Assembly (NCBI GenBank): GCA_045596385.1
Contig: JAZOCC010000013.1
Span: 18,818 to 42,817 of the forward strand
Direction: 5' to 3'
DNA from: Lachnospiraceae bacterium
GTDB lineage: Bacteria > Bacillota > Clostridia > Lachnospirales > Lachnospiraceae
DNA length: 24,000 nucleotides
Part shown: positions 11,932 through 24,000 of the stretch, piece after piece
Position numbering within the stretch: the stretch's first letter is position 1
Layout of the letters: the number at the start of each line of letters is the position of its first letter
Notes under the pieces: model-generated
What the model was told of the DNA's origin: nothing
The model's input: only the letters and a program-made list of their open reading frames with translations
The model's database searches: none
Translations under genes and position numbers: made by a program

Positions 11932-12045
11932 TCACTAATTTGAAATCTAATTTAAGATTTATTTTAATATTTTGCCCTTTTTCACTTTAGGCATTTTTCA
12001 CAAAAAAAGCGGAAAATTTCAGTAGTTTCGACGAAGGGATTTTTC

Positions 12046-12075
12046 TTGCCTGACGGGCGATGGTTGAGGTATAAT
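12046..12075 (+). promoter_or_regulatory. Candidate distal promoter (P1) upstream of the Rpn-like gene
   Basis: TTGCCT (12046..12051), an 18-nt spacer, then TATAAT (12070..12075). It would give a ~210-nt structured leader. Confidence 0.35.
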
Positions 12076-12179
12076 AGTTTTATGACAGAGAACTGCCCTT
12101 CCGACACAGCGCGCGTGTCGAGGCATACATTCACTCTGTTTCTTCGGCGGAGATCTGCCGGGAGATTCACATTTATAGC

Positions 12180-12266
12180 GCAGAAGGAAGAAACCTATAC
12201 GTTTGCCTTGCATTTTCCGTCCAATGCCCCTATAATAAAGGCAAAGGAATGTGTGCTTCTTTCTGC
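12180..12266. repeat. Nested inverted repeat enclosing promoter P2
   Basis: The outer arms are GCAGAAGGAAG (12180..12190) and CTTCTTTCTGC (12256..12266): 11 bp with one G-T position. The inner arms are TTTGCCTT (12202..12209) and AAGGCAAA (12238..12245), 8 bp and perfect. Confidence 0.6.
12208..12236 (+). promoter_or_regulatory. Candidate proximal promoter (P2) of the Rpn-like gene
   Basis: TTGCAT (12208..12213), a 17-nt spacer, then TATAAT (12231..12236), about 55 nt upstream of ATG 12291. Confidence 0.5.
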
Positions 12267-12290
12267 AACACCAAAGGGAAAGGAGTAAAT

Positions 12291-13280
12291 ATGACAGAAA
12301 ACACATACATTTCCGATGCATTAGAAGGAAATAACAGCAAAGACCGTTTAGATACGGAAGTCAAGAAAGTACTAAGCGATAAAACGGTATTAGCTTGGAT
12401 TTTAAAGTACACCACTGCCGAGTTTAAGCGATACTCTATCGAAAGGATAAAAACGTGTATCGAAGGCACTCCGGAAGTAGGCACTCATCCATTGAATCCA
12501 AAGTCCAAACACACCGGGAAATCTCAAAAAAGCAGTAAGCATGGTCAGTCTCCGGAGGCCATCACCGGAAGCGATACCGTAGATAAAGTACCGGGCGAAG
12601 GACATGTATACTATGACATTCGCTTTTACGCGGTTACGCCTACCAAGGATCGCATCAAGCTGATACTGAATGTAGAGGCACAAAAGGCTCTCTCATTAAA
12701 GTATGACCTTGTTACAAGGGGGATTTTTTACGCTGCACGCATGATTTCTGCCCAAAAGGGTACGGAATTTACAAAAAGCAATTATGATGATATAAAGAAA
12801 GTATATTCTATCTGGATTTGCATAGAAGTTCCCAGAAACATGGAATATACCATAACATCCTATCGGATGGACAAGAAAGTCCTTTTCGGCAATCCCAGGA
12901 GACGCTTCCGCTATGACTTGATGGAAGTTGTTATGATATGTCTCGGTAGAGAAGAAACGGCTAACACCGGAACTAAACTACACGGTATGTTAAGTACCTT
13001 GCTTTCACGAAAGCTGACACCCAAAGAAAAAGAAAAATGTTTAGCTGCAGAATATGATTTTGAAACATCAACAGAACTGGAAGGAGAATTGAGACAGATG
13101 TGTAATTATAGCGATTTGATAGAAGAAAGAGGCATTGAAAAAGGTATCAAACAAGGCATTGAAAAAGGCAAACTGACCATCCTGATTGCCCTGGTTCAAG
13201 ACGGCCTGATTTCTATAGAGGAGGCCGCAAAGCGGGCCGGTATGACCGTTGAAGACCTGCAGGCTCTTATGGCAAATTAA
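12291..13280 (+). CDS. Rpn-family / PD-(D/E)XK nuclease 'putative transposase' (TIGR01784/PDDEXK_2-like)
   Basis: The start was moved to ATG 12291, with SD AGGAG at 12281. The core YYDIRFYAV...ILNVEAQK...RGIFYAARMIS...VYSIWICIE fits the D..E.QK nuclease pattern of this family. The C-terminal IEKGIKQGIEKGK...EEAAKRAGMTVEDLQALM tail is typical of it. Confidence 0.75.
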   Translation: MTENTYISDALEGNNSKDRLDTEVKKVLSDKTVLAWILKYTTAEFKRYSIERIKTCIEGTPEVGTHPLNPKSKHTGKSQKSSKHGQSPEAITGSDTVDKVPGEGHVYYDIRFYAVTPTKDRIKLILNVEAQKALSLKYDLVTRGIFYAARMISAQKGTEFTKSNYDDIKKVYSIWICIEVPRNMEYTITSYRMDKKVLFGNPRRRFRYDLMEVVMICLGREETANTGTKLHGMLSTLLSRKLTPKEKEKCLAAEYDFETSTELEGELRQMCNYSDLIEERGIEKGIKQGIEKGKLTILIALVQDGLISIEEAAKRAGMTVEDLQALMAN

Positions 13281-13333
13281 AGACGCCAAAATCTCCCGTC
13301 GAAAGGCACTCTTGGCAACCAAATAAAAACCAC

Positions 13334-13390
13334 AAGCTCTTGTCGCCGGAAGCATCACCCGCACCCGACGACAAGAGCTTTTTTATTTTC
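13334..13390. terminator. Bidirectional rho-independent terminator between the convergent Rpn-like gene and the R-M operon
   Basis: The arms are AAGCTCTTGTCG (13334..13345) and CGACAAGAGCTT (13369..13380), extendable to 16 bp with one mismatch. TTTTTTATTTT follows on the plus strand and GTGGTTTTTATTT follows on the minus strand. Confidence 0.7.
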
Positions 13391-13451
13391 TTGATTCTTT
13401 CTTAATCCTTAAGTCAGTGACTTGTACCGTTTGAGGATCGTGCCTTTGCAT

Positions 13452-13478
13452 CCTCCGCGATTGCAGCAATTGCGGAGG
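13452..13478. repeat. 27-bp near-perfect palindrome in the core/island transition
   Basis: CCTCCGCGATTGC-A-GCAATTGCGGAGG has one non-Watson-Crick position. There is no adjacent U-tract on either strand. Confidence 0.6.
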
Positions 13479-13603
13479 CCCCAGGGTAGGAAGTAACGAT
13501 GAAACGTGGAATCTGTTTGTCATAGATTTCTCTTTTTGCTTTTTTTAACCAAATTCCTGACATAATACAAATAATTATTCAGTCCAAAAACAGCAAAACA
13601 CTT

Positions 13604-14149
13604 TTATTTCAAATCAAATTTGTATGATTGCTTACCAATTTGTATGTTCCCATTCTTCAAATTGGTATTAAGATACTCTAACGCATACGGTTGAAGATTA
13701 TACGCAAACGTGGTGAAATAACTACTTATAGAAGATGCTCTATATATTATATATCTACTCTCAAGTGCCGCTTTTCTTCCATCATTTATCTCTATTCCAC
13801 CAGTAGTATGAAAACATTCATTGTTTTCATCATAAAAAGCCTCTATTAAAAGTTGCTTTTCATCTGAACTCATATTATCTTTCATATATTTTAATGCAAT
13901 TCTTTTTTCATTGTAAATCCTTCTTTTCAAACATCTTATTAGCCACTCAACTATTCGGAACAAATAATATGAACCAAGAATTATCATTCCAATGCTGATA
14001 TACGTTTGATATGAATTTCTAAATTCATACACATTAATTTTTACTGCCCACTTTTCAGGAAGCAAAGTAAGAACTAAAGAAGCAATAAATACAATTGCCA
14101 AAAGTTCTTTTAGCTTAAGCTTATCAACGATAGACTTCAAAATATCCAA
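13604..14149 (-). CDS. SieB-like (superinfection exclusion protein B family, PF14163-like) small membrane protein
   Basis: 181 aa with a TTG start at 14149, 6 nt after a strong SD (GAGGAGGAGAATAAGTTG) and 14 nt after the hsdR stop. It has two N-terminal TM helices (LLAIVFIASLVLTLL, ISIGMIILGSYYLFRIV). The soluble C-domain carries MSSDEKQLLIEAFYDENN...NDGRKAALESRYIIY...LQPYALEYL, which matches my recollection of the SieB family pattern. Confidence 0.6.
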   Translation of the reverse strand: MDILKSIVDKLKLKELLAIVFIASLVLTLLPEKWAVKINVYEFRNSYQTYISIGMIILGSYYLFRIVEWLIRCLKRRIYNEKRIALKYMKDNMSSDEKQLLIEAFYDENNECFHTTGGIEINDGRKAALESRYIIYRASSISSYFTTFAYNLQPYALEYLNTNLKNGNIQIGKQSYKFDLK

Positions 14150-14163
14150 CTTATTCTCCTCCT

Positions 14164-17100
14164 CTACGCAATCTCCTCAGAATTACGCTTTATCTCTGCC
14201 ACTACTTCCATGATACGTTTGGCAGTTCCCATATCATCTTTAAACAGTGTTGTTATACTGCCTACAGAGCGGAACGGTTCCTCCATCAACACCTTATTAT
14301 CGTCAATATTGCCGTTTGCAACAATATAATCAACGATAAGATTTACAAAACGAATCTGATTTACATTCAGTCTCTGTTCTGCCAGGAACTCACTGAATGC
14401 CTCATTTACCGCTGCCCTGTCTACACCGACAATTCTACGGACCAAGCGACCGATTGGAGTGTCTCCGTATTCCTTCTCGTAATCAGATTTTGTACCCAAA
14501 TCTTGCCACAATATCTTTTCAAGAGCCTTCAAATCCGCCGCAGTCAGTTTCTTATTATTTCGAAGTTTATACACACACAGACTGCTACCATGTTCCTTCA
14601 AATAAAACTCAACCTTCTTCCGATAATCCTTAAGGTCGCTGGAATCATAAATCGGCGCTCCCTCTTTCATATCGATAATGGTATCTGTAAAGTTTTTATA
14701 ATAAATCGGACGTACTAACTTATCCAAATACTGCAACAAATCACGTAATGCAATTCTTACCGTATCCAGTTCCATAATCGTTACATCTTCCCAGAATTCC
14801 GGCAACTGTACACGCTCTATAATTTCTCTCTGTTTCTCGACCTGTGGAATCGAATACTTTGCGGACAATCGTTCTGCCGTAAAAATAACAATATTAATCG
14901 GCGTCTGTACATTCTTACTTTGCAATAGTCCTAGTTTGATGCTGTACATAAGATAGTCAAATCTTCTGGCGAGTTCATCTTCCTTTTTCGGCTTAATCAA
15001 CGGAGATACATGTTCTTTTATCTCAGAAACCTCAACGGTTTCAAGACTGTTCCAGTTGGACAATTCGCGGAACTTTTCCACATATCTTAAGTGCCTTTTT
15101 ACCATGAAACTGTTATTATCCAGTTCAACTACCGCTTTATGTTGACCAGACACCAATTCCATTCTATAGGTAATATACGGCTTATCTTTCGCATATACAG
15201 GTGCCTGTAACTCCCTGCAGATCAACGTCTTCGTGTTATAAATCTTCTCACAAAGAGTCTCCTGAATTCCGGTTTCACTCCCGTTAGTATTCACTCTGAA
15301 ATACTCAAAGTTATTACAGAAGTCAAATATCAGGAAACGCTCCTTATCGATCCCGGCTCCCAATAAATCAGGACAAAGTCTGGTTCCTCGTCCGATCATC
15401 TGCCAAAACTTTGCATAACTGCGCACCTTTTTAAAGAACACCAGATTCAAAATCTCCGGTATATCGATACCGGTATCCAACATATCTACCGACACAGCAA
15501 TCTGCGGCATTTTCTCTTTCGTGCTAAAATCGTCAATTAAAGTATCACAATATTTTATACTATAATCAATCTGCTTAATAAAGTCTCCACCACATTCCGG
15601 GAAGAGTACATTAAAGCGTTTCACAATCTCTTTGGCATGCAAACTATTCTTCGCAAAAATAATCGTTTTGCCAAGCTTGTCTCCACCTTCAATCTTCAAA
15701 CCTTTTTCCATTAATTCTTTCAAAACTTTATCAATCGTGTCTTGATTAAATAGCCACGTATTAATCGCAGAACTGGAAATATCCTCATCCACCATATCAT
15801 CGTCGGCAAAAGTCTCTTCAAACTCTTCCTTCTCTTCCTCAGACAACTCATCATAGTGAATGCCATCTTCCATAATCTTTGTCTTATATTCCAGCGTAGA
15901 ATAATTTACAAGATACCCCTCTTCTACGGCCTTTTCCAGCTCATAAGCAAAAGTCGGAACACCACGTTCCAGGTCAAACACACCGTAAGTATTCTTGTCA
16001 ATTTCATTCTTTGGAGTCGCGGTCATTCCCAACAACATAGCATCAAAATACTCGAAGATTTCCTGATACTTCCGATAAATCGAACGATGAACTTCATCAC
16101 AGATGATAAGGTCAAAATGTCCCGGAGAAAACAATCTTTCTCCATACTTATTCTTCTTTTCATCGATTGCATTCATCATGGTCGGATAGGTTGAAAAAAT
16201 CATTCTCGAACTTTCCGGGTCATCCTTACTGTCACATAAATTACAGCAAGATAAATCTTCTAACAAGCTTGTATAACTGTTCTTCGCCTGTTTTACAAGT
16301 GCAGTTCTATCCGCCAAAAACAGAATGTTCTTTACATAGTTGTGCCGTCTTAATACGTCCACAATGCTGATACTAACTCTGGTCTTACCGGAACCGGTTG
16401 CTTGAACAATCAGCATCTTTCTATGTTTCTTCGCAATCGCATCACACACCGCCGTTATTGCCTCTTTCTGATACGGTCTGTTAGTGATTATATCGCTGAT
16501 TTCAATACGGTCCAAAGGAATCCGCTGTTCTCTTCGGTCTACTTCTAACTGTAACTCTTCCTGCGTAAAGAAGCCAGACACTTGTCTTCTCGGGTAGCCG
16601 CAAGCATCATTCGTATAATAAAACTCAAAACCGTTAGTGGTAAAAATAAGCGGTCTACGCCCATACTTATTTTGCAAACAATCTGCGTACAACTTCGCCT
16701 GCTGACTACCTACAATCGCATCTACAGACGCCTTTTTCGCTTCCACCACAGCCAAAGGCAAATTATCTTTGCCCCATAAAACATAATCCACATATCCCGT
16801 ACCGGTAGGATTCGGCATACCGGTAACCGGCTCCTCAATGGTACAATTTCTCCCTATGACCCAACCGGCTTCCTGCAACTCCACATCAATATATCTTGCG
16901 CGAGTCTCTGCCTCGCTCATCGTATCCACATGGAATTCTCGTGTCTGCGTATGTACCTTACGTTCTTCCGCCATCTGCTTACGCAGTTCTTCATTCTCCT
17001 TAAGAATCTGTTCCAGTTTCACATCTTTACTGCTTAAACTATCATACAGCTTTTTAAGCTCCTCTGCTTTTACACGTTTCTCATCACCGGATACAAGAAG

Positions 17101-17514
17101 TGTCTCGTCAAAGGTTCTCTCCTCATATTCCTCAGAATAACAAAAATCAATCCAATCACAGAACTCAAACAAATCACGTAACGAAATAATTGCCTCATCA
17201 CGCTTGATATTGCTATTCGTATGTACTGCAACATTCCCCAAATGAATCGTATACTTAAGCATAGGAAACAAACGCGGCTCAATAATGTCGCGGAAGGATT
17301 TTTCATGAATCAAACTCGATATATTATCCTGATAAGGAAGCTGCAAATCTGCATCATACGAAAAAACAAATCTTACCGCCAACTCTAATGCTCTTCTTGC
17401 CAAAATTGCACAAGTTGCCGGAGAAATCGCAAGACTTTTCTCTGCTTCAACCGCCTGAGCAGCAAATCCTTTATATTCTTTTTTCGCTAACAGGTAATCA
17501 AAATTTGTTTCCAA
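14164..17514 (-). CDS. hsdR: Type I restriction enzyme R subunit (N-terminal DUF4145-like domain + coiled coil, PD-(D/E)xK nuclease, SF2 helicase, EcoEI-R-type C-terminal domain)
   Basis: The nuclease motif is GYVDYVLWG...VVEAKK. The helicase motifs are I QATGSGKT, II ICDEVHRS, III GMTATP and VI QMIGRGTR. The TTG start at 17514 is 7 nt after AAGGAGGG, and the N-terminus METNFDYL is typical for this HsdR class. Confidence 0.95.
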   Translation of the reverse strand: METNFDYLLAKKEYKGFAAQAVEAEKSLAISPATCAILARRALELAVRFVFSYDADLQLPYQDNISSLIHEKSFRDIIEPRLFPMLKYTIHLGNVAVHTNSNIKRDEAIISLRDLFEFCDWIDFCYSEEYEERTFDETLLVSGDEKRVKAEELKKLYDSLSSKDVKLEQILKENEELRKQMAEERKVHTQTREFHVDTMSEAETRARYIDVELQEAGWVIGRNCTIEEPVTGMPNPTGTGYVDYVLWGKDNLPLAVVEAKKASVDAIVGSQQAKLYADCLQNKYGRRPLIFTTNGFEFYYTNDACGYPRRQVSGFFTQEELQLEVDRREQRIPLDRIEISDIITNRPYQKEAITAVCDAIAKKHRKMLIVQATGSGKTRVSISIVDVLRRHNYVKNILFLADRTALVKQAKNSYTSLLEDLSCCNLCDSKDDPESSRMIFSTYPTMMNAIDEKKNKYGERLFSPGHFDLIICDEVHRSIYRKYQEIFEYFDAMLLGMTATPKNEIDKNTYGVFDLERGVPTFAYELEKAVEEGYLVNYSTLEYKTKIMEDGIHYDELSEEEKEEFEETFADDDMVDEDISSSAINTWLFNQDTIDKVLKELMEKGLKIEGGDKLGKTIIFAKNSLHAKEIVKRFNVLFPECGGDFIKQIDYSIKYCDTLIDDFSTKEKMPQIAVSVDMLDTGIDIPEILNLVFFKKVRSYAKFWQMIGRGTRLCPDLLGAGIDKERFLIFDFCNNFEYFRVNTNGSETGIQETLCEKIYNTKTLICRELQAPVYAKDKPYITYRMELVSGQHKAVVELDNNSFMVKRHLRYVEKFRELSNWNSLETVEVSEIKEHVSPLIKPKKEDELARRFDYLMYSIKLGLLQSKNVQTPINIVIFTAERLSAKYSIPQVEKQREIIERVQLPEFWEDVTIMELDTVRIALRDLLQYLDKLVRPIYYKNFTDTIIDMKEGAPIYDSSDLKDYRKKVEFYLKEHGSSLCVYKLRNNKKLTAADLKALEKILWQDLGTKSDYEKEYGDTPIGRLVRRIVGVDRAAVNEAFSEFLAEQRLNVNQIRFVNLIVDYIVANGNIDDNKVLMEEPFRSVGSITTLFKDDMGTAKRIMEVVAEIKRNSEEIA

Positions 17515-18592
17515 ATCTGTTCCCTCCTTCTTTATATATCCTCTGGCTTATGATAAGTAAAAATTTCAATTTGTCGACTTGTTCAACGAAGTTTGCAAAC
17601 TGCTCTTGTTGTTCAACTGGTGGCACAGGAATCCTAATATTCTCAACGATAGACTTAGATATTTCCTTGAATGTTGCACCACGTCCAAGAGCATTCAAGT
17701 ATTCTGTATTTAAGAGAAGAAGCGTGTATAAATATCGCGGAACAATCTCCTCATTGCAGATAATGTTCTTGAACCCCTGATTACAATAAAAAGTTGAACC
17801 TGCAATTGCAACCTTGCCAATAGGGGCTCTTGAAGACAAAATCACAGTATTAGCAGGCATTTCCTGCAAAGAGCAACTATCTACACCCGCTTTTGTCAAC
17901 TTGCGAACAGAATCATAAATATAACCGCTATCCGCATCAAGTTCAGCAGGAGTTATCCATTTGTATTCACCATCCCAATATTCCTCGATATTAGTTTTCG
18001 GTGTGGCGCCGCTCACAACCTTACCTATTTCAAAAATAGATTTCCAATCACTCTGAGAATAAGATAAATCAAATTCCCCAAACATCTCCACAAATCGGGA
18101 TTTGATGAGATTGTCCAGTTCTTCCAACTCTATCTTGCGCTTCTTCTTTATCTCAACGACCTTATTCAATTTATCAACTATACTTATTTGTTCCTCTAAT
18201 GTTCTTTTCGGTATCATCATCTTGCGCATAGCCGCTTGTGTCAACTTCTGTCTAGTTGCTCCATTAACCATTCCATCCACATTATAAAACATCAGAGAAT
18301 AACATAAATAATCTACATCTATTCCTTCTTTGGGTTTTAATACATGCGCGTGATTATTTACCCAGCACTTTCCTGAAACACGATAGGCAATAGGTCTTTC
18401 CTTGGAACCAAAGTTTCCACCATCCTCTGCCAATAAAACCAACTCATCATCAAATAAATAATCTGCCACATGGTCCTGAATTCCATTGGCACCATAATAT
18501 GGATATGGTCCCTCTTCTCTGTCCGATGCAGTAATCGGAACTCTCATGGAATCTAATATCTCACAGCAATCTTCTATGTATATTTTATCCAT
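17498..18592 (-). CDS. hsdS: Type I R-M specificity subunit, copy A (TRD_X - central conserved region - TRD_Y; aberrant C-terminal tail)
   Basis: It has two target-recognition domains separated by ELDNLIKSRFVEMFG. The distal conserved region stops after QFANFVEQVDKLKF and is replaced by LLIISQRIYKEGGNRFGNKF. It overlaps the hsdR start by 17 nt. The start is ATG 18592. Confidence 0.9.
   Translation of the reverse strand: MDKIYIEDCCEILDSMRVPITASDREEGPYPYYGANGIQDHVADYLFDDELVLLAEDGGNFGSKERPIAYRVSGKCWVNNHAHVLKPKEGIDVDYLCYSLMFYNVDGMVNGATRQKLTQAAMRKMMIPKRTLEEQISIVDKLNKVVEIKKKRKIELEELDNLIKSRFVEMFGEFDLSYSQSDWKSIFEIGKVVSGATPKTNIEEYWDGEYKWITPAELDADSGYIYDSVRKLTKAGVDSCSLQEMPANTVILSSRAPIGKVAIAGSTFYCNQGFKNIICNEEIVPRYLYTLLLLNTEYLNALGRGATFKEISKSIVENIRIPVPPVEQQEQFANFVEQVDKLKFLLIISQRIYKEGGNRFGNKF
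17564..17583. repeat. Distal-conserved-region repeat D, copy A (20 nt, identical to 19745..19764, direct)
   Basis: TTTCAATTTGTCGACTTGTT encodes (E)QVDKLK on the minus strand. Homology to copy B ends abruptly on the 3' (low-coordinate) side. Confidence 0.9.
18078..18106. repeat. Central-conserved-region repeat C, copy A (29 nt, identical to 20234..20262, direct)
   Basis: CCAAACATCTCCACAAATCGGGATTTGAT encodes IKSRFVEMFG on the minus strand. It contains the internal palindrome CAAATC-GG-GATTTG. Confidence 0.9.
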
Positions 18593-18597
18593 TTTAT

Positions 18598-18620
18598 ATC
18601 ATCTCCACAAATCTGAATTT
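18598..18620. repeat. hsdS 5'-junction repeat J, copy A (23 nt, identical to 20794..20816, direct)
   Basis: ATCATCTCCACAAATCTGAATTT supplies the SD (GGAG) of hsdS_A and begins 4 nt after the recombinase stop. Confidence 0.9.
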
Positions 18621-18624
18621 GCGG

Positions 18625-19596
18625 TTATCCGATGAATTTCCTATGAGAGTTCTTTACATTGCTCTGATTAACCATAGCATAATGCATGGTCGTATCAATT
18701 TGTTGATGTCCCAATAGGCGTTGTACTTGCTCTATCGGCATTCCTTTGTCTATTGCTTTTGTTGCCATGGAACGCCTGAATTTATGTGGATGTACTTTCT
18801 CAATATTGAGTCGACGTCCAAGATTTCTTAACCGTATCTCAACTCCACTTATCTTTAATCGTTCACTGGGCTTGTCCAGTGTCACAAATAAAGCTTCATT
18901 TCTATCTGTTCTGCTCTTCAAATATTCTTGCAGATGAATTTTAGCCCTTGCATCAAAGTATACTCGTCGTTCCTTATTTCCCTTACCATACACAACGCAT
19001 TCCCGTTCCTCAAAATTAATATCAGCCTTATTTAGATTCACCAATTCACCAACTCGAATTCCAGCAGAATACAACAAATCAATGATTGCCAAATCCCTTA
19101 TGTTTTTACAGTTATCGCGCATAACTTCAATGTTTTCGTCAGAAAAAGTTTCCTTCACACGGGTACCGGTTCTTACCTTATGAATTCGCCGTATTGGACT
19201 TTTCAATATATGATCTTCATCTTCCAACCAAGAAAAGAAACTGGACAAATTCCGTCGAATATTGTCAATCGTTACCCGCCCGCAATTATTCTTTACCTGA
19301 TACTGCGTTAAGTACTCTCGTAAGTCCTCTGTCGTGATTTGCCTTACCGGTGTCTTTATATCCAAAAACATATTCTGAATCGTGCTCCGATAGTACTCTA
19401 TGGTACGTTCAGAACACCCCTCAATCCGCTTGGCAGCAACAAACATATCAAGATACTCTTTATTATCAATCTCCCTTGTAATTTCCGGGTCCGTCCTCTG
19501 CAAATATTTTAGCAAACATTCCTGTAACCTTCTCATTTGCTGGACATCAAGACACTCCGACATATCGTTCAATATTCTACAAATCGCATTCTCCAT
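18625..19596 (-). CDS. Tyrosine site-specific recombinase (XerC/D-like, shufflon-type integrase)
   Basis: The N-terminal SAM-like domain is followed by a catalytic domain with AGIRVGEL (Arg), GKGNKERRV (Lys), HPHKFRRSMAT (HxxR) and LLGHQQIDTTMHY (His, Tyr nucleophile). Confidence 0.9.
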   Translation of the reverse strand: MENAICRILNDMSECLDVQQMRRLQECLLKYLQRTDPEITREIDNKEYLDMFVAAKRIEGCSERTIEYYRSTIQNMFLDIKTPVRQITTEDLREYLTQYQVKNNCGRVTIDNIRRNLSSFFSWLEDEDHILKSPIRRIHKVRTGTRVKETFSDENIEVMRDNCKNIRDLAIIDLLYSAGIRVGELVNLNKADINFEERECVVYGKGNKERRVYFDARAKIHLQEYLKSRTDRNEALFVTLDKPSERLKISGVEIRLRNLGRRLNIEKVHPHKFRRSMATKAIDKGMPIEQVQRLLGHQQIDTTMHYAMVNQSNVKNSHRKFIG

Positions 19597-19633
19597 TTTG
19601 GTATACTCCTTTTTTCACCCAGTATACCAAAAT
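19595..19633. promoter_or_regulatory. 13-bp perfect inverted repeat spanning the recombinase start codon, SD and predicted -10
   Basis: ATTTTGGTATACT (19595..19607) and AGTATACCAAAAT (19621..19633) are exact reverse complements, separated by a 13-nt spacer that contains most of the SD (AAGGAG on the coding strand). Confidence 0.7.
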
Positions 19634-19648
19634 CAAATATTTCTGCAA
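19621..19648 (-). promoter_or_regulatory. Candidate internal extended -10 promoter for the recombinase gene
   Basis: On the minus strand: TTGCAG (19648..19643), a 16-nt spacer ending in TGG, then TATACT (19626..19621). It lies in the 66-nt gap between the hsdS_B stop and the recombinase ATG. Confidence 0.45.
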
Positions 19649-19662
19649 GAACATCCTTTTAC

Positions 19663-20790
19663 TTATCCGAAGTACTTCTGCATAAGCGAATCCATTAGTT
19701 GCTGCGTTTCATCCAACGATTTCTGTACTTCAACTTTCAATTTGTCGACTTGTTTCGCAAATTGTTCAAACCCCCCTTGAAGCTCTATTGGTGGATATGG
19801 AAATGGATATGCTTTTAATGCAGGCATTTCAATACCGCTTTGTCCCGCTGTTCGCTGTGATAAACCATCCAAATAATTAAATAAACAATCTTGCTTCAAG
19901 AAATATCGTATAAACTCTTTATTTCCCATCTTTGGTGTTGCCTTCATAAGTGCAACATTATAAGCACCTTCAATGCCTTTAAGAATCTGGAAAATTGGGG
20001 GGCCATATCTTCCAATCATAATATCATCTGCATCACAAAATCTTTTTGCCATGGATTTTGGAATATATGTAACATAGTTATCTGTTTTATAATCTCTAAT
20101 CTGAATCAGACGAACATTATCTTCCGTTAGCTTATATTCAAAATATTTCTTATCAGGTTGAGCTCCACCAGTAAATTCTATGACATCATCAACCGTCAAC
20201 ATTGGAAACCCTTTTTCATTCGCATTAGGAGTTCCAAACATCTCCACAAATCGGGATTTGATAAGTTGGTCCAATTCAAACAATTCTTTCCGCCGTAATA
20301 CAAGTATTTCGCTACCCTTCTGCAGCTGATATGCAATTTTCTTTTGCACATCCATTTTAGGCACTTCTATCTCTATATTTTCAACAATTGACTTAGAAAT
20401 CTCCTTAAATGTAGCCCCTCTCCCTAAAGAATTTAAATAATCCTTCTTACACTTTAGAAACCAATAGAGATACTCATTATATATTTCCTCTGTACAAATC
20501 AAATTCTTGAATCCTTGGTTACAATACATCTCACAACCAGCAATTGCTACTTTCCCTATAGGCGCTCTTGATGATAAAATCACCGTTCCTTTCGGAAATG
20601 AATTTAAGCCTGTTTTCTCAACTGCAAGTTCAGTAATCTTTCTCGCAGAGTCTTCTAAAATATATGAATCTTCGGTTAATTCAGCTGGTGTAATCCATTT
20701 GACATCACCATCCCAAAATTCTTCCACATTAGTCTTGGGCGTACTTCCTGAAACAACATTACATATATCACCTAACCGTCTTTTTGCCAT
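19663..20790 (-). CDS. hsdS: Type I R-M specificity subunit, copy B (TRD_Y' - central conserved region - TRD_Z; intact C-terminal helix)
   Basis: It has two TRDs separated by ELDQLIKSRFVEMFG, and the distal conserved region is complete (FEQFAKQVDKLKVEVQKSLDETQQLMDSLMQKYFG). ATG 20790 lies 24 nt after the hsdM stop. Confidence 0.9.
   Translation of the reverse strand: MAKRRLGDICNVVSGSTPKTNVEEFWDGDVKWITPAELTEDSYILEDSARKITELAVEKTGLNSFPKGTVILSSRAPIGKVAIAGCEMYCNQGFKNLICTEEIYNEYLYWFLKCKKDYLNSLGRGATFKEISKSIVENIEIEVPKMDVQKKIAYQLQKGSEILVLRRKELFELDQLIKSRFVEMFGTPNANEKGFPMLTVDDVIEFTGGAQPDKKYFEYKLTEDNVRLIQIRDYKTDNYVTYIPKSMAKRFCDADDIMIGRYGPPIFQILKGIEGAYNVALMKATPKMGNKEFIRYFLKQDCLFNYLDGLSQRTAGQSGIEMPALKAYPFPYPPIELQGGFEQFAKQVDKLKVEVQKSLDETQQLMDSLMQKYFG
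19745..19764. repeat. Distal-conserved-region repeat D, copy B
   Basis: TTTCAATTTGTCGACTTGTT is identical to 17564..17583 and in the same orientation. Confidence 0.9.
20234..20262. repeat. Central-conserved-region repeat C, copy B
   Basis: Identical 29-mer in the same orientation as 18078..18106. Confidence 0.9.
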
Positions 20791-20793
20791 TTC

Positions 20794-20816
20794 ATCATCT
20801 CCACAAATCTGAATTT
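20794..20816. repeat. hsdS 5'-junction repeat J, copy B
   Basis: Identical 23-mer that supplies the SD of hsdS_B and overlaps the hsdM stop codon. Confidence 0.9.
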
Positions 20817-22278
20817 ATTTAAGTCCAAGCAAACTCTTAAGCTCCGAAAACTCCTTTTGAATCTCTGCCTCAATCTGCTCTATTTTACCGATAATTACTT
20901 CTGTAGACTCGTACTCAACCTGTTCATATACCACTTCTTTATACTTATTAATGGACAGGTCATAATCATTGGCAATAATCTCATCCACTGGCACAAAGAA
21001 GCTTTGCTCTGTTCTTGCTCTATCTGTCTCGGTTTCCAAGTTATTAAAACGCTTGATAATGTCCGGAATATCGCAGTCAGAAATCTCCTGTCGCTTATCG
21101 TCCAAACTATATCCATCAGCCTTCATATCATAAAACCATACCTTGTCCGTTCCGCCGGAACCGGTCTTCGTAAAGATTAAGATTGCCGTAGATACACCTG
21201 CATACGGCTTAAACACACCACTCGGCATAGATATTACTGCATCCAACTTATTGTTATTTATAATCTCTGTTCGAATCTGCTTATGTGCATTGCTACTACC
21301 AAACAACACTCCATCCGGAACAATTACAGCCGCTCTTCCACCCTTTTTCAAAATACGCAAAAACAGTGCCAAGAAAAGCAACTCTGTCTTTTTCGTCTTG
21401 GTTACTTTCAACAAATCGGCTGATACTGCTTCATAGTCCAAGCTCCCTTTAAACGGCGGATTAGCCAATACAAGAGTATACTTCTCCGAATCCGTATTCT
21501 GCTCAGACAGACTGTCTCTATAGGAAATATTCGGATTATCAACACCGTGTAACATCATATTCATGGCACCGATACGAAGCATCGTTCTATCCATATCATT
21601 TCCGTAAAACATTTCGTTATTGAAATGCTCTCTCAATTTAGCATTTAAGAACATGTCCGCATGATTATCCCTTAAATACTGTTGCGCCTCAATTAGGAAA
21701 CCTGCACTTCCCATTGCCGGGTCAATAATAATGTCATCCGGCTTCGGTTTTACCAAATCCACCATCATTCTAATGATATGACGTGGTGTTCTAAACTGAC
21801 CATTTGTACCTGCTGTAGCAACTTTCGAAAGCAAATACTCATACAAATCCCCCTTAGAGTCTGCATCCCCCAATTCTAGCTTGTCAATACCGTCAACAAT
21901 CTTAGTCAACATTGCTGCAGTCGGAATCTTAAAGATTGCATCTCCCATGTATCTGGCATATGCAGAATCTCCATCCTGATGCAAATTCTTTATAAACGGA
22001 AACACTTCATTTGCCACAAGCTTATACATCTCATCAGCAGAACCCAGATTCTTAAACTTGCTCCACTTATACTTCTGATAATCCCCTGCAAACATCGACT
22101 CAAACGGCACCCCGAGGAAATTAGCCTCATTCTCTTTTACGGTATCCATATCGTCCAACTGCTTTATAAACAGCAAATATGTAAACTGCTCAATAACATC
22201 CAGAGGATTGGTTATTCCTCCGGTCCAAAAGGTTTCCCATATCTTGTCTATCTTATTACGTAATTCGCCTGTAATCAT
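20815..22278 (-). CDS. hsdM: Type I R-M N6-adenine DNA methyltransferase subunit
   Basis: It has an HsdM N-terminal domain, AdoMet motif I IIDPAMGSAGFL and catalytic motif IV LANPPFKGS. Length is 487 aa and the start is ATG 22278. Confidence 0.95.
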   Translation of the reverse strand: MITGELRNKIDKIWETFWTGGITNPLDVIEQFTYLLFIKQLDDMDTVKENEANFLGVPFESMFAGDYQKYKWSKFKNLGSADEMYKLVANEVFPFIKNLHQDGDSAYARYMGDAIFKIPTAAMLTKIVDGIDKLELGDADSKGDLYEYLLSKVATAGTNGQFRTPRHIIRMMVDLVKPKPDDIIIDPAMGSAGFLIEAQQYLRDNHADMFLNAKLREHFNNEMFYGNDMDRTMLRIGAMNMMLHGVDNPNISYRDSLSEQNTDSEKYTLVLANPPFKGSLDYEAVSADLLKVTKTKKTELLFLALFLRILKKGGRAAVIVPDGVLFGSSNAHKQIRTEIINNNKLDAVISMPSGVFKPYAGVSTAILIFTKTGSGGTDKVWFYDMKADGYSLDDKRQEISDCDIPDIIKRFNNLETETDRARTEQSFFVPVDEIIANDYDLSINKYKEVVYEQVEYESTEVIIGKIEQIEAEIQKEFSELKSLLGLK

Positions 22279-22349
22279 GTTGTAGTTCCTTTCTTTGCAT
22301 TCATAGTGAGATTCATCAAAAGTTCCTCTTGTTTTTAATCTTCATTCAA

Positions 22350-23027
22350 CTACTCGGTTTGTAATGTACCATACCGGACACAAATCTCATAATCAAATTT
22401 TACTTCCTTTCCTTTATCAAAACGAACAGTCACATATTTCCCCTCTCGTCTTATTATTGTACCGCAACCACGCTTCCTGTGTCTAACACGACCACCAATT
22501 TCATTCAATCTATCAGCGTTCTTACTATCCTTGCAAGTTCCAATCCTTGCCCTAATCCATGTCTTATCCAATTCTTTCATTACATAATATCTAAGATATT
22601 TATCCTCGAGATAATATTTTCCATCTTTTATAGAAACATAGATTGGCTTATCCATTTTCTTATGTTCCTCATAGTACGCTCGCAATTCCGCCACCTTTTG
22701 AGAACTCGGAGGTTGCTTCAAAAACTTTTCCGGAACCACAATTTCTTTAATCTTAATAGTACGCACACCGACAAATTCTTCTGCCTCTTCCTTTTTCAGT
22801 TCTTGAATAACAGCCTTTGTTCGTTCAATTGTAGACACACCTTCTCTTCTGTTCTCCGCCTCTTCTTCCCCATAAAATCCACAATGAGCCGAGCCTCCAC
22901 ATCTAGACATATAAGCACAGGAACCGTCTTTATGATAATGTACACACCATTTTCTATGTCTTCGTTCGTCTTTCTTATGTACATATGTAATACCGTTTGT
23001 CCCTTCAACAAATCCGTGTTCTCTCAT
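22350..23027 (-). CDS. Uncharacterised three-module protein: N-terminal Cys/His cluster, ParB/Srx-like middle region, C-terminal Tudor/DUF3553-like domain
   Basis: 225 aa, starting at ATG 23027 with SD GAGGAG. The N-terminus is CVHYHKDGSCAYMSRCGGSAHC. The middle, IKIKEIVVPEKF...PIYVSIKDGKYYLEDKYLRYYVMKEL...IRARI, resembles the ParB N-domain layout but lacks a clear GxxR arginine motif. The C-terminus, RVRHRKRGCGTIIRREGKYVTVRFDKGKEVKF, resembles the PcrA/UvrD C-terminal Tudor-type motif. All domain calls are by eye. Confidence 0.6.
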   Translation of the reverse strand: MREHGFVEGTNGITYVHKKDERRHRKWCVHYHKDGSCAYMSRCGGSAHCGFYGEEEAENRREGVSTIERTKAVIQELKKEEAEEFVGVRTIKIKEIVVPEKFLKQPPSSQKVAELRAYYEEHKKMDKPIYVSIKDGKYYLEDKYLRYYVMKELDKTWIRARIGTCKDSKNADRLNEIGGRVRHRKRGCGTIIRREGKYVTVRFDKGKEVKFDYEICVRYGTLQTE

Positions 23028-23082
23028 AATTTCTCCTCATTTTATAAAACCACATCACATCAAAAAGTCTACCTGCTATTCT

Positions 23083-23583
23083 TTACTTTTCCTCTATTAT
23101 ATCAAGCAAGTCCTCATAAAATTCTTTTTTTAAACGTGCATTTTCTAAATACACTAAAGAAATAACGAGCACAACAACTAATGGCCCAAACTTTCCCGTA
23201 CTATTTATTTCCAGATTTTTTTTCATGAAGAAATCATCTATAGAAAGTAATGCAATATAGAGCGGAATCAAAATAATCTTTACTGCCTCCAACTCTCCTT
23301 TTGCATATCTCCTTTTCTGTTCTAGCCAATGAACAAAATTTTCTTTTTCACAAGAATTCTGTACTGGGAAAACCTCTTTTATATGATTTTTCCACTCCAA
23401 ATAGGTATCACAAAACTTATACTTATTTTCTTTCTTATTTATTTTCCTTCTGAACCAACGACGAATATTCAATATCCATCCACGATTTGCCGTTTTTCGG
23501 TTTCCATAATCCTTCCCTACATAGTGATATGTTTTCAACTCATATTTTTCATTAATATTATACGCTTGAAACTCATTCTTCAT
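23083..23583 (-). CDS. Uncharacterised small membrane protein (basic N-terminal domain + two C-terminal TM helices)
   Basis: The track start 23598 is GTG; I prefer ATG 23583, preceded by AAGTGAGG. The TM segments are AVKIILIPLYIALLSI and FGPLVVVLVISLVYL. No family was recognised. It is the first gene after the island promoter. Confidence 0.6.
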   Translation of the reverse strand: MKNEFQAYNINEKYELKTYHYVGKDYGNRKTANRGWILNIRRWFRRKINKKENKYKFCDTYLEWKNHIKEVFPVQNSCEKENFVHWLEQKRRYAKGELEAVKIILIPLYIALLSIDDFFMKKNLEINSTGKFGPLVVVLVISLVYLENARLKKEFYEDLLDIIEEK

Positions 23584-23626
23584 ATAATTTTGCCTCACTT
23601 TCTAACTCTTTCACCTTATCTCTTTA

Positions 23627-23655
23627 ATTATACTTCTTTTTCTAACACATTTCAA
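23627..23655 (-). promoter_or_regulatory. Near-consensus sigma-A promoter of the island operon
   Basis: On the minus strand: TTGAAA (23655..23650), a 17-nt spacer, then TATAAT (23632..23627), about 45 nt upstream of ATG 23583. I found no comparably good promoter upstream of the 225-aa gene or hsdM. Confidence 0.55.
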
Positions 23656-23736
23656 CCATTTTCATCAAATATTAAAGCCGTTTCCACTTTCCTGCTGCAA
23701 AAAATAATTTAGAACACTTTTACCAATCTTTCTCTC

Positions 23737-24000
23737 CTACACATCCTTTGCCCAAAGCCAAAATATCAAACCGCCTATCATGATTGCCCCCAGCAACTCA
23801 TTGACTATCGTTCCCACAAGAATCGCAATGATATAAAACACCCAGAACATTCCTGCAGATTCCGGGTCTGGACTGCTCCTTCGGCCTCCGCGACTTCCGT
23901 AGTTCTGTTCATCACAATCGCATCCGTAACCGGTACAACTTCTTCCGTGCTCTCCGTCATGTGGAATCATATTTCTTCTGTCATGTCCATGCTCGCTCAT
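23737..24000 (-). CDS. Small hypothetical membrane protein with a His/Cys/Gly-rich N-terminus (possibly 5'-truncated by the window edge)
   Basis: The 87-aa ORF has its ATG on the last three bases of the window, so the true start may lie outside. The C-terminal half has two hydrophobic helices (MFWVFYIIAILVGTIV, LLGAIMIGGLIFWLW). GC is back to core-like levels. Confidence 0.45.
   Translation of the reverse strand: MSEHGHDRRNMIPHDGEHGRSCTGYGCDCDEQNYGSRGGRRSSPDPESAGMFWVFYIIAILVGTIVNELLGAIMIGGLIFWLWAKDV

Follow-up and report, generated by a model that had tools for sequence, protein, structure and literature searches.

A restriction–modification locus of type I in a Lachnospiraceae bacterium that probably shuffles half-gene specificity cassettes at three classes of direct repeats

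Introduction

Why should two specificity genes of one type I restriction–modification (RM) locus, which encode homologous protein segments with largely different codons, be identical to the last nucleotide in three short blocks? The question is raised by a locus in a 24,000-nucleotide stretch of contig JAZOCC010000013.1 (assembly GCA_045596385.1, Lachnospiraceae bacterium); the whole of this stretch is called the window here, and all positions are counted from its first nucleotide. The original prediction, made from the DNA letters alone, interpreted the blocks, designated J, C and D, as candidate crossover sites. This interpretation is supported by the homology of the locus to a characterized system and by the junctions seen in its relatives, which fall at the blocks. 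It is very probable that J, C and D serve the resident tyrosine recombinase as crossover sites, at which it would swap the recognition modules of a slot that is expressed with those of a silent one. Judging from its sequence, the locus is a homologue of the tvr/SpnIV locus of Streptococcus pneumoniae, and the switching mechanism that we invoke is already known from pneumococcus.

Results and discussion

Three blocks of nucleotide identity in two diverged hsdS genes

Open reading frame (ORF) analysis and Pfam searches revealed five co-directional genes on the minus strand, in the order hsdM, hsdS_B, int, hsdS_A and hsdR. The first gene of the operon, hsdM (20815..22278; Pfam N6_Mtase and HsdM_N), encodes the type I methyltransferase subunit and is followed by hsdS_B (19663..20790; Methylase_S), which occupies the putative expression slot. 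Next come int (18625..19596; Phage_integrase and SAM_4), encoding a tyrosine recombinase of the TvrR clade, and hsdS_A (17498..18592; delimited by ORF analysis), located in the putative storage slot. The last gene of the system is hsdR (14164..17514; ResIII and EcoEI_R_C), whose TTG start codon is preceded by a strong Shine–Dalgarno (SD) sequence. Each hsdS gene is made of two half-gene cassettes (TES1 and TES2), each with its own target recognition domain (TRD). In hsdS_B, TES1 (TRD_Y') is followed by C, TES2 (TRD_Z), D and a canonical 24-residue tail, VEVQKSLDETQQLMDSLMQKYFG; in hsdS_A, TES1 (TRD_X) is followed by C, TES2 (TRD_Y), D and a non-canonical tail, FLLIISQRIYKEGGNRFGNKF, which overlaps the start of hsdR.

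A search for exact repeats recovered J, C and D as direct repeats of 23, 29 and 20 nt, respectively, all read here on the minus strand. The first copy of J (J1, 20794..20816) covers the hsdM stop and the hsdS_B leader, including the SD sequence, and the second (J2, 18598..18620) lies after the int stop and before hsdS_A; the J match is maximal and lies outside both hsdS reading frames. C (C1, 20234..20262; C2, 18078..18106) encodes IKSRFVEMFG, and D encodes QVDKLK. The copies of D are found at 19735-19754 (D1) and 17564-17583 (D2); the former had been placed at 19745-19764, 10 nt off, where there is no match. Together with the cores described below, degenerate in D1 and perfect in D2, the D elements extend over 19732..19754 and 17561..17583. 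No other long exact repeats occur in the region, the remaining window matches of at least 14 nt being isolated 14-15-mers, and inverted repeats linking the two hsdS genes do not exceed chance length. A plus-strand 14-mer, CATCTCCACAAATC, was confirmed to occur exactly four times, at the predicted places and in one orientation, and none of 100 dinucleotide shuffles yielded four matches, even with two mismatches allowed.

That the blocks are islands of identity within otherwise low nucleotide identity was borne out by comparing the codons of the two hsdS genes. TRD_Y and TRD_Y' are 60% identical as proteins, with the same codon used at 38 of 94 identical degenerate residues, and the conserved segment GRGATFKEISKSIVENI has 6 of its 17 codons common to both genes. 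By comparison, the codons are identical throughout IKSRFVEMF (9/9) and QVDKLK (6/6), runs whose chance at the background match rate is about 7e-4 and 4e-3, respectively. The two related TRDs sit at different positions, TRD_Y (hsdS_A residues 182-343) being C-terminal and TRD_Y' (hsdS_B residues 3-158) N-terminal; the nucleotide segments compared for their likeness were 17942-18032 and 20680-20770. Their placement illustrates TRD 'domain movement' from one position to another.

Relationship to the pneumococcal tvr locus

In S. pneumoniae, the tvr/SpnIV locus comprises hsdM, a TES region, tvrATR, another TES region and hsdR, all in direct orientation; a midpoint repeat of ~18 bp flanks the 5' TESs, a tail-end repeat is ~70 bp long, and a core of ~11 bp is common to the two (Kwun et al. 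2018, PMC6265443). Shuffling of the TESs depends on TvrR, with a circle being excised and reintegrated at another repeat, and the repeats have been shown experimentally to be required for it (PMC6265443). Methylation is driven only by the upstream hsdS (PMC6265443). The literature on tvr/SpnIV returned by our searches concerns pneumococcus only. For the comparison, we recovered the pneumococcal tvr loci (L098-L103) and took their repeat sequences from the locus DNA.

The window Int and TvrR are 59% identical with all 323 of 323 residues aligned (E = 3e-146), and the motifs RVGEL, GKG.KER, HPHKFRR, LLGH and Y are conserved between them; the HsdM and HsdR proteins are 65% and 48% identical to their pneumococcal counterparts. 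The homology extends to the repeats: over the part common to both, the pneumococcal midpoint repeat AAATCCCGATTTAACGAGATGTTTGGGGA departs from window C at 3 nt, its segment AAATCCCGATTTAACGAGATGTTTGG being homologous to C1, and the 68-nt pneumococcal tail-end repeat contains a core, GTCGACAAAT, that matches D and terminates in GTCGACAAATCACAATT, for which the D counterpart is GTCGACAAATTGAAA. The window thus resembles L098-L103 in the co-directional order of hsdM, TES, recombinase, TES and hsdR, in the correspondence of the midpoint repeat (AAATCCCGATTT...GAGATGTTTGG) to C and of the tail-end core to D, in having a core common to the repeat types in a single orientation, and in carrying the canonical tail only in the upstream slot. 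As in tvr, a TES cassette can be found in one slot or the other, and the breakpoints fall at the repeats; this was observed in relatives of the window from different strains or samples.

There are also differences. The window has a third class of repeat, J, after hsdM and again after int, whereas the pneumococcal hsdM-proximal TES is immobile for want of a 5' repeat. The exact block D measures 20 nt, compared to the ~70 bp of the pneumococcal tail-end repeat, and the host is a gut Lachnospiraceae-like organism. Finally, the window is without a terminator-like attenuator, having instead a hairpin over the ribosome-binding site (RBS) and start codon of int.

A putative recombinase core

The motif AAAT-N4-ATTT is common to all three classes. 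The core is AAATTCAGATTT in J (20805-20816 in J1, 18609-18620 in J2), AAATCCCGATTT in C (20248-20259 in C1, 18092-18103 in C2) and AAATTGAAATTT in D2 (17561-17572, hsdS_A), where it is perfect; in D1 (19732-19743, hsdS_B) it is degenerate, AAATTGAAAGTT. In J and C the core makes up the left part, in D the right end, and the identity of J1 and J2 begins exactly at its first base, the left flank being backbone-specific. Exact copies of AAAT-N4-ATTT in the 24-kb window number five (two in J, two in C and one in D), all in one orientation, and the 4-nt spacer differs by class: TCAG in J, CCCG in C and TGAA in D. Because D has the same core, J, C and D appear to be one kind of site differing in the 4-nt spacer, and AAAT-N4-ATTT is likely to be the recombinase core.

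The original prediction had pointed to two other features of the blocks. The palindrome CAAATC-GG-GATTTG is indeed present in both copies of C and proves to be the AAAT-N4-ATTT core itself. The 14-mer, on the coding strand GATTTGTGGAGATG, holds up as a repeat, but it overlaps only the right half of AAAT-N4-ATTT. As the core it has to be rejected: the AAAT-N4-ATTT part is all that D has in common with the other sites, and the cassette shared with the relative L083 (see below) stops at ...ATTTGT, before GGAGATG.

We searched for related loci by a one-genome-per-species scan with the recombinase, which yielded 80 loci whose recombinases reach 60% identity or more; Bacillota, Bacteroidota and Actinomycetota are among the groups represented. 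AAAT-N4-ATTT occurs in them at a density of 0.83/kb between hsdM and hsdR, compared to 0.11/kb outside. The order hsdM, hsdS, int, hsdS, hsdR, with all genes in the same direction, is found in Lachnospiraceae, Veillonella, Catenibacterium and Holdemanella. In about 20 of the co-directional loci, short exact direct repeats (14-50 nt) are found at one or more of the J, C and D positions, in the majority at every one of them, and inverted matches are absent there; the sole inverted matches in co-directional relatives are two of 14-17 nt, that is of chance length, elsewhere in L003 and L021. The variants of the sites are alike within a locus and unlike between loci, with a mean of 3.7 mismatches per 36 nt for C sites of the same locus versus 7.8 for those of different loci (permutation p ~1e-4).

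The spacers of the co-directional Bacillota loci are TCAG, TTAG, TCAT or TCGG in J, CCCG in C and TGAA in D. In Bacteroidales, GATA and TCTC alternate, and in the Streptococcus suis locus L067 the CATC/GATG pairs equal those of the published SsuCC20p repeats, TAAATCATCATTTA and TAAATGATGATTTA. The Bacteroidales loci concerned (L033, L034, L043-L045, L055 and others) have a recombinase of the same clade directly after hsdM and, 3' of it, arrays in which AAAT-GATA-ATTT and AAAT-TCTC-ATTT cores alternate in direct orientation. The same cores form inverted pairs in other loci, from Gardnerella, S. suis and some Bacteroidaceae; L047, L049, L050, L059, L067 and L080 were part of this comparison. The core seems to be clade-wide, with the orientation set by the 4-nt spacer.

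Crossovers in natural variants

The anatomy of the locus and the homology of its recombinase and sites to those of pneumococcus are established, and so are the positions of crossovers in related variants. The J-to-C cassette of the window (20243-20816) is 99.65% identical over 574 nt to segments of two relatives, L083 (2564-3137) and L085 (1218-1791), where it is located immediately downstream of int, although the backbones of these loci (int, hsdM and hsdR) are only ~90-92% identical to that of the window. In L083 the end of int lies to the left and the start of hsdS_B to the right; the identity of the cassette with that of the window extends from the first base of the J core to AAATCCCGATTTGT of C, and the flanking identity amounts to only ~14-23 nt. 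A cassette so similar on a backbone so much less similar suggests that one half-gene cassette alone was exchanged horizontally, not long ago and in a site-specific manner. L083 also indicates that the hsdM-proximal cassette is mobile here, since J sits directly after hsdM.

Two further pairs are similarly informative. L091 and L094 have backbones 99.9% identical, with two units, [Fic + TES1a] and [RhuM-HTH-MNT-HepT + TES1b], exchanged between the upstream and downstream slots. Both loci nevertheless have AAATTTAGATTTGTA as the upstream J and AAGTTTAGATTTGTA as the downstream J: the AAAT/AAGT polymorphism in the left half of the core is tied to the backbone and the sequence beyond ...ATTTGTA to the cassette, so the crossover must have taken place within ~12 nt of core. 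In L093 and L092, the same TES2 (100% identity over 573 nt) occupies opposite slots, its limits being C and AAATTGAAATCTG at D, and the tail or the hsdR leader stays with the backbone. All these swaps keep both slots and int, and deletion alone is therefore insufficient to explain them; reintegration or an equivalent second crossover is needed.

In relatives of the window, the stretch from the J core to the start of hsdS also accommodates passenger genes, namely Fic/Doc, RhuM, an HTH gene and an MNT-HepT toxin–antitoxin pair (L091, 3075-4376 and 6998-9462; L094, 2039-4376 and 6998-8299; also in L092 and L093), and these genes move with the cassette on a slot swap. A DUF3990 gene and a 156-aa ORF are fixed upstream of int in relatives, the position of tvrAT in pneumococcus. 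Because of the 99.65% cassette match and of the passenger genes (Fic, RhuM, MNT-HepT) riding with the cassettes, one may speculate that the J/C/D cores and the recombinase constitute a platform for cassette exchange between genomes that captures passenger genes, an idea that we consider rather doubtful. If it is true, the loci would serve gut Bacillota as hubs of an integron-like kind, for defence genes as well as specificity modules.

Duplications and contig ends were seen around the recombinase in several relatives. In L009 (1472-5309), the segment [int + C-TES2-D] is duplicated in tandem, the unit being 2273 bp long, and L032 (5799-10510) contains two copies of int; these could be products of unequal exchange or could reflect the assembler threading a circular intermediate into the chromosome. 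Many recombinase contigs are only 1-3 kb long and end inside the flanking hsdS (e.g. L004, L027, L029, L041, L052, L057 and L084-L090), which is compatible with assembly breaks due to mixed arrangements; such contigs are common in these collections and by themselves are no evidence.

Proposed expression and storage slots

The sequence following D depends on the slot. The canonical 24-residue tail (...QKSLDETQQLMDSLMQKYFG) comes after VDK[LS]K in 19 of 19 upstream copies and in 1 of 21 downstream copies (Fisher p = 3e-10), the other 20 downstream copies having an unrelated and variable junk tail straight after this motif; the window and pneumococcus both fit the rule. D thus appears to separate the mobile TES2 from a canonical tail that is fixed and present only upstream of int, and the 'aberrant' tail of hsdS_A is best read from this comparison as a conserved design feature. 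As no slot but the upstream one has the canonical HsdS C-terminal tail, hsdS_A seems to be a silent copy kept in reserve.

A junk tail of the downstream type is also found in 4 of 11 single-hsdS relatives devoid of int (L170, L125, L108 and L147). The tail of L170 hardly differs from those of the downstream copies in L168, L169 and L172, and L125 looks much as an L126-like locus would after collapsing by J x J. Such collapsed loci are consistent with the deletion products that had been predicted for same-class repeats. The predicted product of a cross-class J x C deletion finds no support: the spacers of J and C differ, and no such junction occurs in the variant pairs compared.

Proposed mechanism and its alternatives

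Taking these observations together, we consider it quite probable that a TvrR-clade recombinase shuffles four TES cassettes by excision and reintegration at J, C and D. Each cassette would be bounded by direct sites, with J before TES1, C between TES1 and TES2, and D after TES2. The recombinase would pair two sites of the same class and excise the intervening DNA, including int, as a circle, which would then reintegrate via a site of a different class. The net outcome would be that TES1, TES2 or both are swapped between the upstream expression slot and the downstream storage slot, the former supplying the canonical C-terminal helix after D and the latter leading from D into junk and hsdR. Four upstream HsdS combinations (Y'-Z, X-Z, Y'-Y and X-Y) would thereby be possible, of which the Y'-Y pairing would give a near-symmetric specificity. 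Loss of the circle would leave a collapsed hsdM-hsdS-hsdR locus, and one rearranged form is predicted to contain the junction GGATAACCGC-AAATTCAGATTTGTGGAGATGAT-GAAATGGCAAAAAG (int end, J and hsdS_B start). Deletion by recombination between repeats, as originally envisaged, would thus be the first half of the reaction but not the whole of it, reintegration being needed as well. For this particular organism, we infer the action of the recombinase on J, C and D, the formation of the circle and the silence of hsdS_A.

Several observations weigh against the proposed shuffling. The tvrAT genes (Phd/Doc) are absent, the 66 bp between hsdS_B and int containing no ORF, and the right half-site of D1 is imperfect, with AGTT instead of ATTT. 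We found neither the window locus in another arrangement nor its circle junction, and an exact-protein look-up with Int returned nothing. The two members of a variant pair belong to separate samples or strains and so document evolutionary exchange rather than clonal phase variation. The two remaining points, the conservation of a CCCGATTTGTCGAGATGTTTGG-like C sequence in int-less single-hsdS relatives and the 576-bp repeated TES2 of L091 and L094, are best discussed together with the alternative explanations they favour.

According to one of these, the blocks reflect plain family conservation, J, C and D being kept for the HsdS motifs KSRFVEMFG and QVDKLK and for the RBS leader, with the recombinase unrelated or inactive. 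The two motifs are family-wide at the protein level, occurring also in a Clostridium botulinum plasmid locus without a recombinase, and since int-less single-hsdS relatives keep a very similar C (e.g. AAAGCCCGATTTGTCGAGATGTTTGG in several of them), the identity of C appears to be partly a matter of family and coding conservation. These relatives are, however, a confounded control because several of them look like collapsed derivatives, and the right half of C reads ATTT at 64 of 64 sites from loci with int, compared to 11 of 15 from loci without it. The original prediction had named conservation of the blocks in loci lacking a recombinase as a sign of simple family conservation, and the outcome is divided: the metagenomic int-less relatives do keep a C-like sequence, while the C. 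botulinum locus, despite keeping both protein motifs, uses other Ser and Arg codons at C, has no J and has no AAAT-N4-ATTT at D (GTTGACAAACTAAAA). Family conservation also fails to account for J, which is outside both hsdS frames and whose identity starts exactly at the core, for the co-variation of sites within loci, for cassette boundaries of natural variants falling at the cores, and for the experimental requirement of the homologous pneumococcal repeats in shuffling (PMC6265443). We therefore regard it as extremely improbable.

Somewhat less improbable, though still unlikely, is an origin of the variants by gene conversion, or by homologous recombination of the RecA type, at the short conserved blocks, with no site-specific role for the recombinase. 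In pneumococcus, low-level excision on the longer tail-end repeats persists without TvrR (Kwun et al. 2018, PMC6265443), and the 576-bp repeated TES2 common to L091 and L094 could allow homologous exchange on the right side. Yet blocks of 20-29 nt, with flanking identity of ~14-23 nt between the window and L083, are a poor RecA substrate, and one of the crossovers falls inside a 12-nt core stretch. A palindromic core with asymmetric, class-specific spacers that is conserved across phyla together with a recombinase at least 60% identical is rather the signature of a tyrosine recombinase site. Moreover, shuffling of SsuCC20p at 14-bp repeats with the same core requires the recombinase (PMC10790761), and the S. 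suis locus L067, possibly SsuCC20p itself, combines CATC/GATG cores with a recombinase 61% identical to Int. The original prediction itself implied yet another alternative, a one-way deletion switch in which irreversible excision yields hsdM-hsdS-hsdR without any reversible shuffling. The collapsed int-less loci with a downstream-type junk tail (L170, L125, L108 and L147) would fit it, but L091/L094, L092/L093 and the window/L083 pair keep both slots and int with cassettes exchanged, the two-slot layout is kept across several Bacillota families, hardly to be expected of a switch that destroys itself, and the tvr locus, a homologue, has been shown to undergo reintegration (PMC6265443). We thus find a one-way switch very improbable, and excision followed by reintegration at J, C and D remains the explanation that we favour.

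Comparison with other systems

According to the available part of the survey by Huang et al. (2020, PMC7672463), the TvrR clade (their Clade-2) is widespread, with 267 loci in Firmicutes, 88 in Bacteroidetes and 43 in Actinobacteria, and some loci have direct rather than inverted repeats. The survey is centred on invertons, and in that part of it the J/C/D anatomy, the AAAT-N4-ATTT motif and the slot-swap variants are not described. The SsuCC20p system of S. suis, which has a recombinase of the same clade, shuffles between 14-bp repeats and its sites have the same AAAT-N4-ATTT core as the window (PMC10790761). It differs in that oppositely oriented site pairs flank TRD2 and TRD4 and in that the downstream hsdS contributes to methylation (PMC10790761).

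Inverton-type systems, such as SpnIII/ivr of S. pneumoniae, that of Bacteroides fragilis and hsd of Mycoplasma pulmonis, resemble the window in having several hsdS half-genes, a linked recombinase and, as proposed here, a switch of specificity through reassortment of TRDs. They rely, however, on inverted repeats, opposed hsdS genes and a single inversion, whereas all genes and sites of the RM locus are direct and two recombination steps would be needed. An inversion model for the window is rejected, as both hsdS genes are on the minus strand, all genes are co-directional and no inverted repeats link the hsdS genes. The proposed scheme is likewise close to integrons, in which a tyrosine recombinase acts at specific sites, cassettes pass through a circular form and the position of expression adjoins an upstream gene that is fixed, but the cassettes of the window are gene halves joined in frame. 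An integron affiliation is also rejected on the basis of the recombinase, which scores 83 bits against the NCBIfam integron integrase model with a cut-off of 265, its best model being a generic XerA-like recombinase. No attC or attI sites are among the repeats found; no attC search was made beyond those repeats.

A hairpin at the start of int and the genomic context

An inverted-repeat search of the minus strand revealed a perfect 13-bp hairpin, ATTTTGGTATACT / AGTATACCAAAAT, at 19595..19633, with the RBS and ATG of int contained in its loop and 3' arm and with a fold z-score of -3.1. The hairpin is kept in L001, L002, L081 and L083, and in L003 it shows a compensatory, two-sided change (GG/CC to GA/TC). 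It may act as a brake on int expression by limiting translation, and as such may be analogous to the attenuator upstream of the recombinase in the tvr locus of S. pneumoniae.

The RM region is a 38% GC island, compared to ~50% GC in the left half of the window. The island around the locus (window ~12000-24000) has 35-43% GC, and the adjoining core genes, encoding cation efflux, transglutaminase-like, MoxR AAA, DUF58 and low-molecular-weight phosphatase proteins, have ~50%. No tRNA was found at its border, and a promoter and terminator scan gave counts within shuffle expectation. Other genes of the island are one for a SieB-like superinfection-exclusion protein immediately following hsdR (13604-14149), which L081 and L082 have as well, and an Rpn/PDDEXK_2 nuclease-like gene on the plus strand (12249-13280).

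Conclusion

Specificity switching by excision and reintegration has been studied experimentally only in S. pneumoniae, and the locus described here would extend it to gut Lachnospiraceae, Veillonella and Erysipelotrichaceae. It also offers a testable model of the sites, in which AAAT-N4-ATTT cores are assigned to classes by their 4-nt spacer. As a consequence for annotation, a downstream hsdS with an 'aberrant' tail would be a silent cassette store rather than a pseudogene or a second active specificity gene. Such loci would be expected to break metagenomic assemblies at the recombinase, and they would create heterogeneity of both the methylome and restriction in commensal populations.

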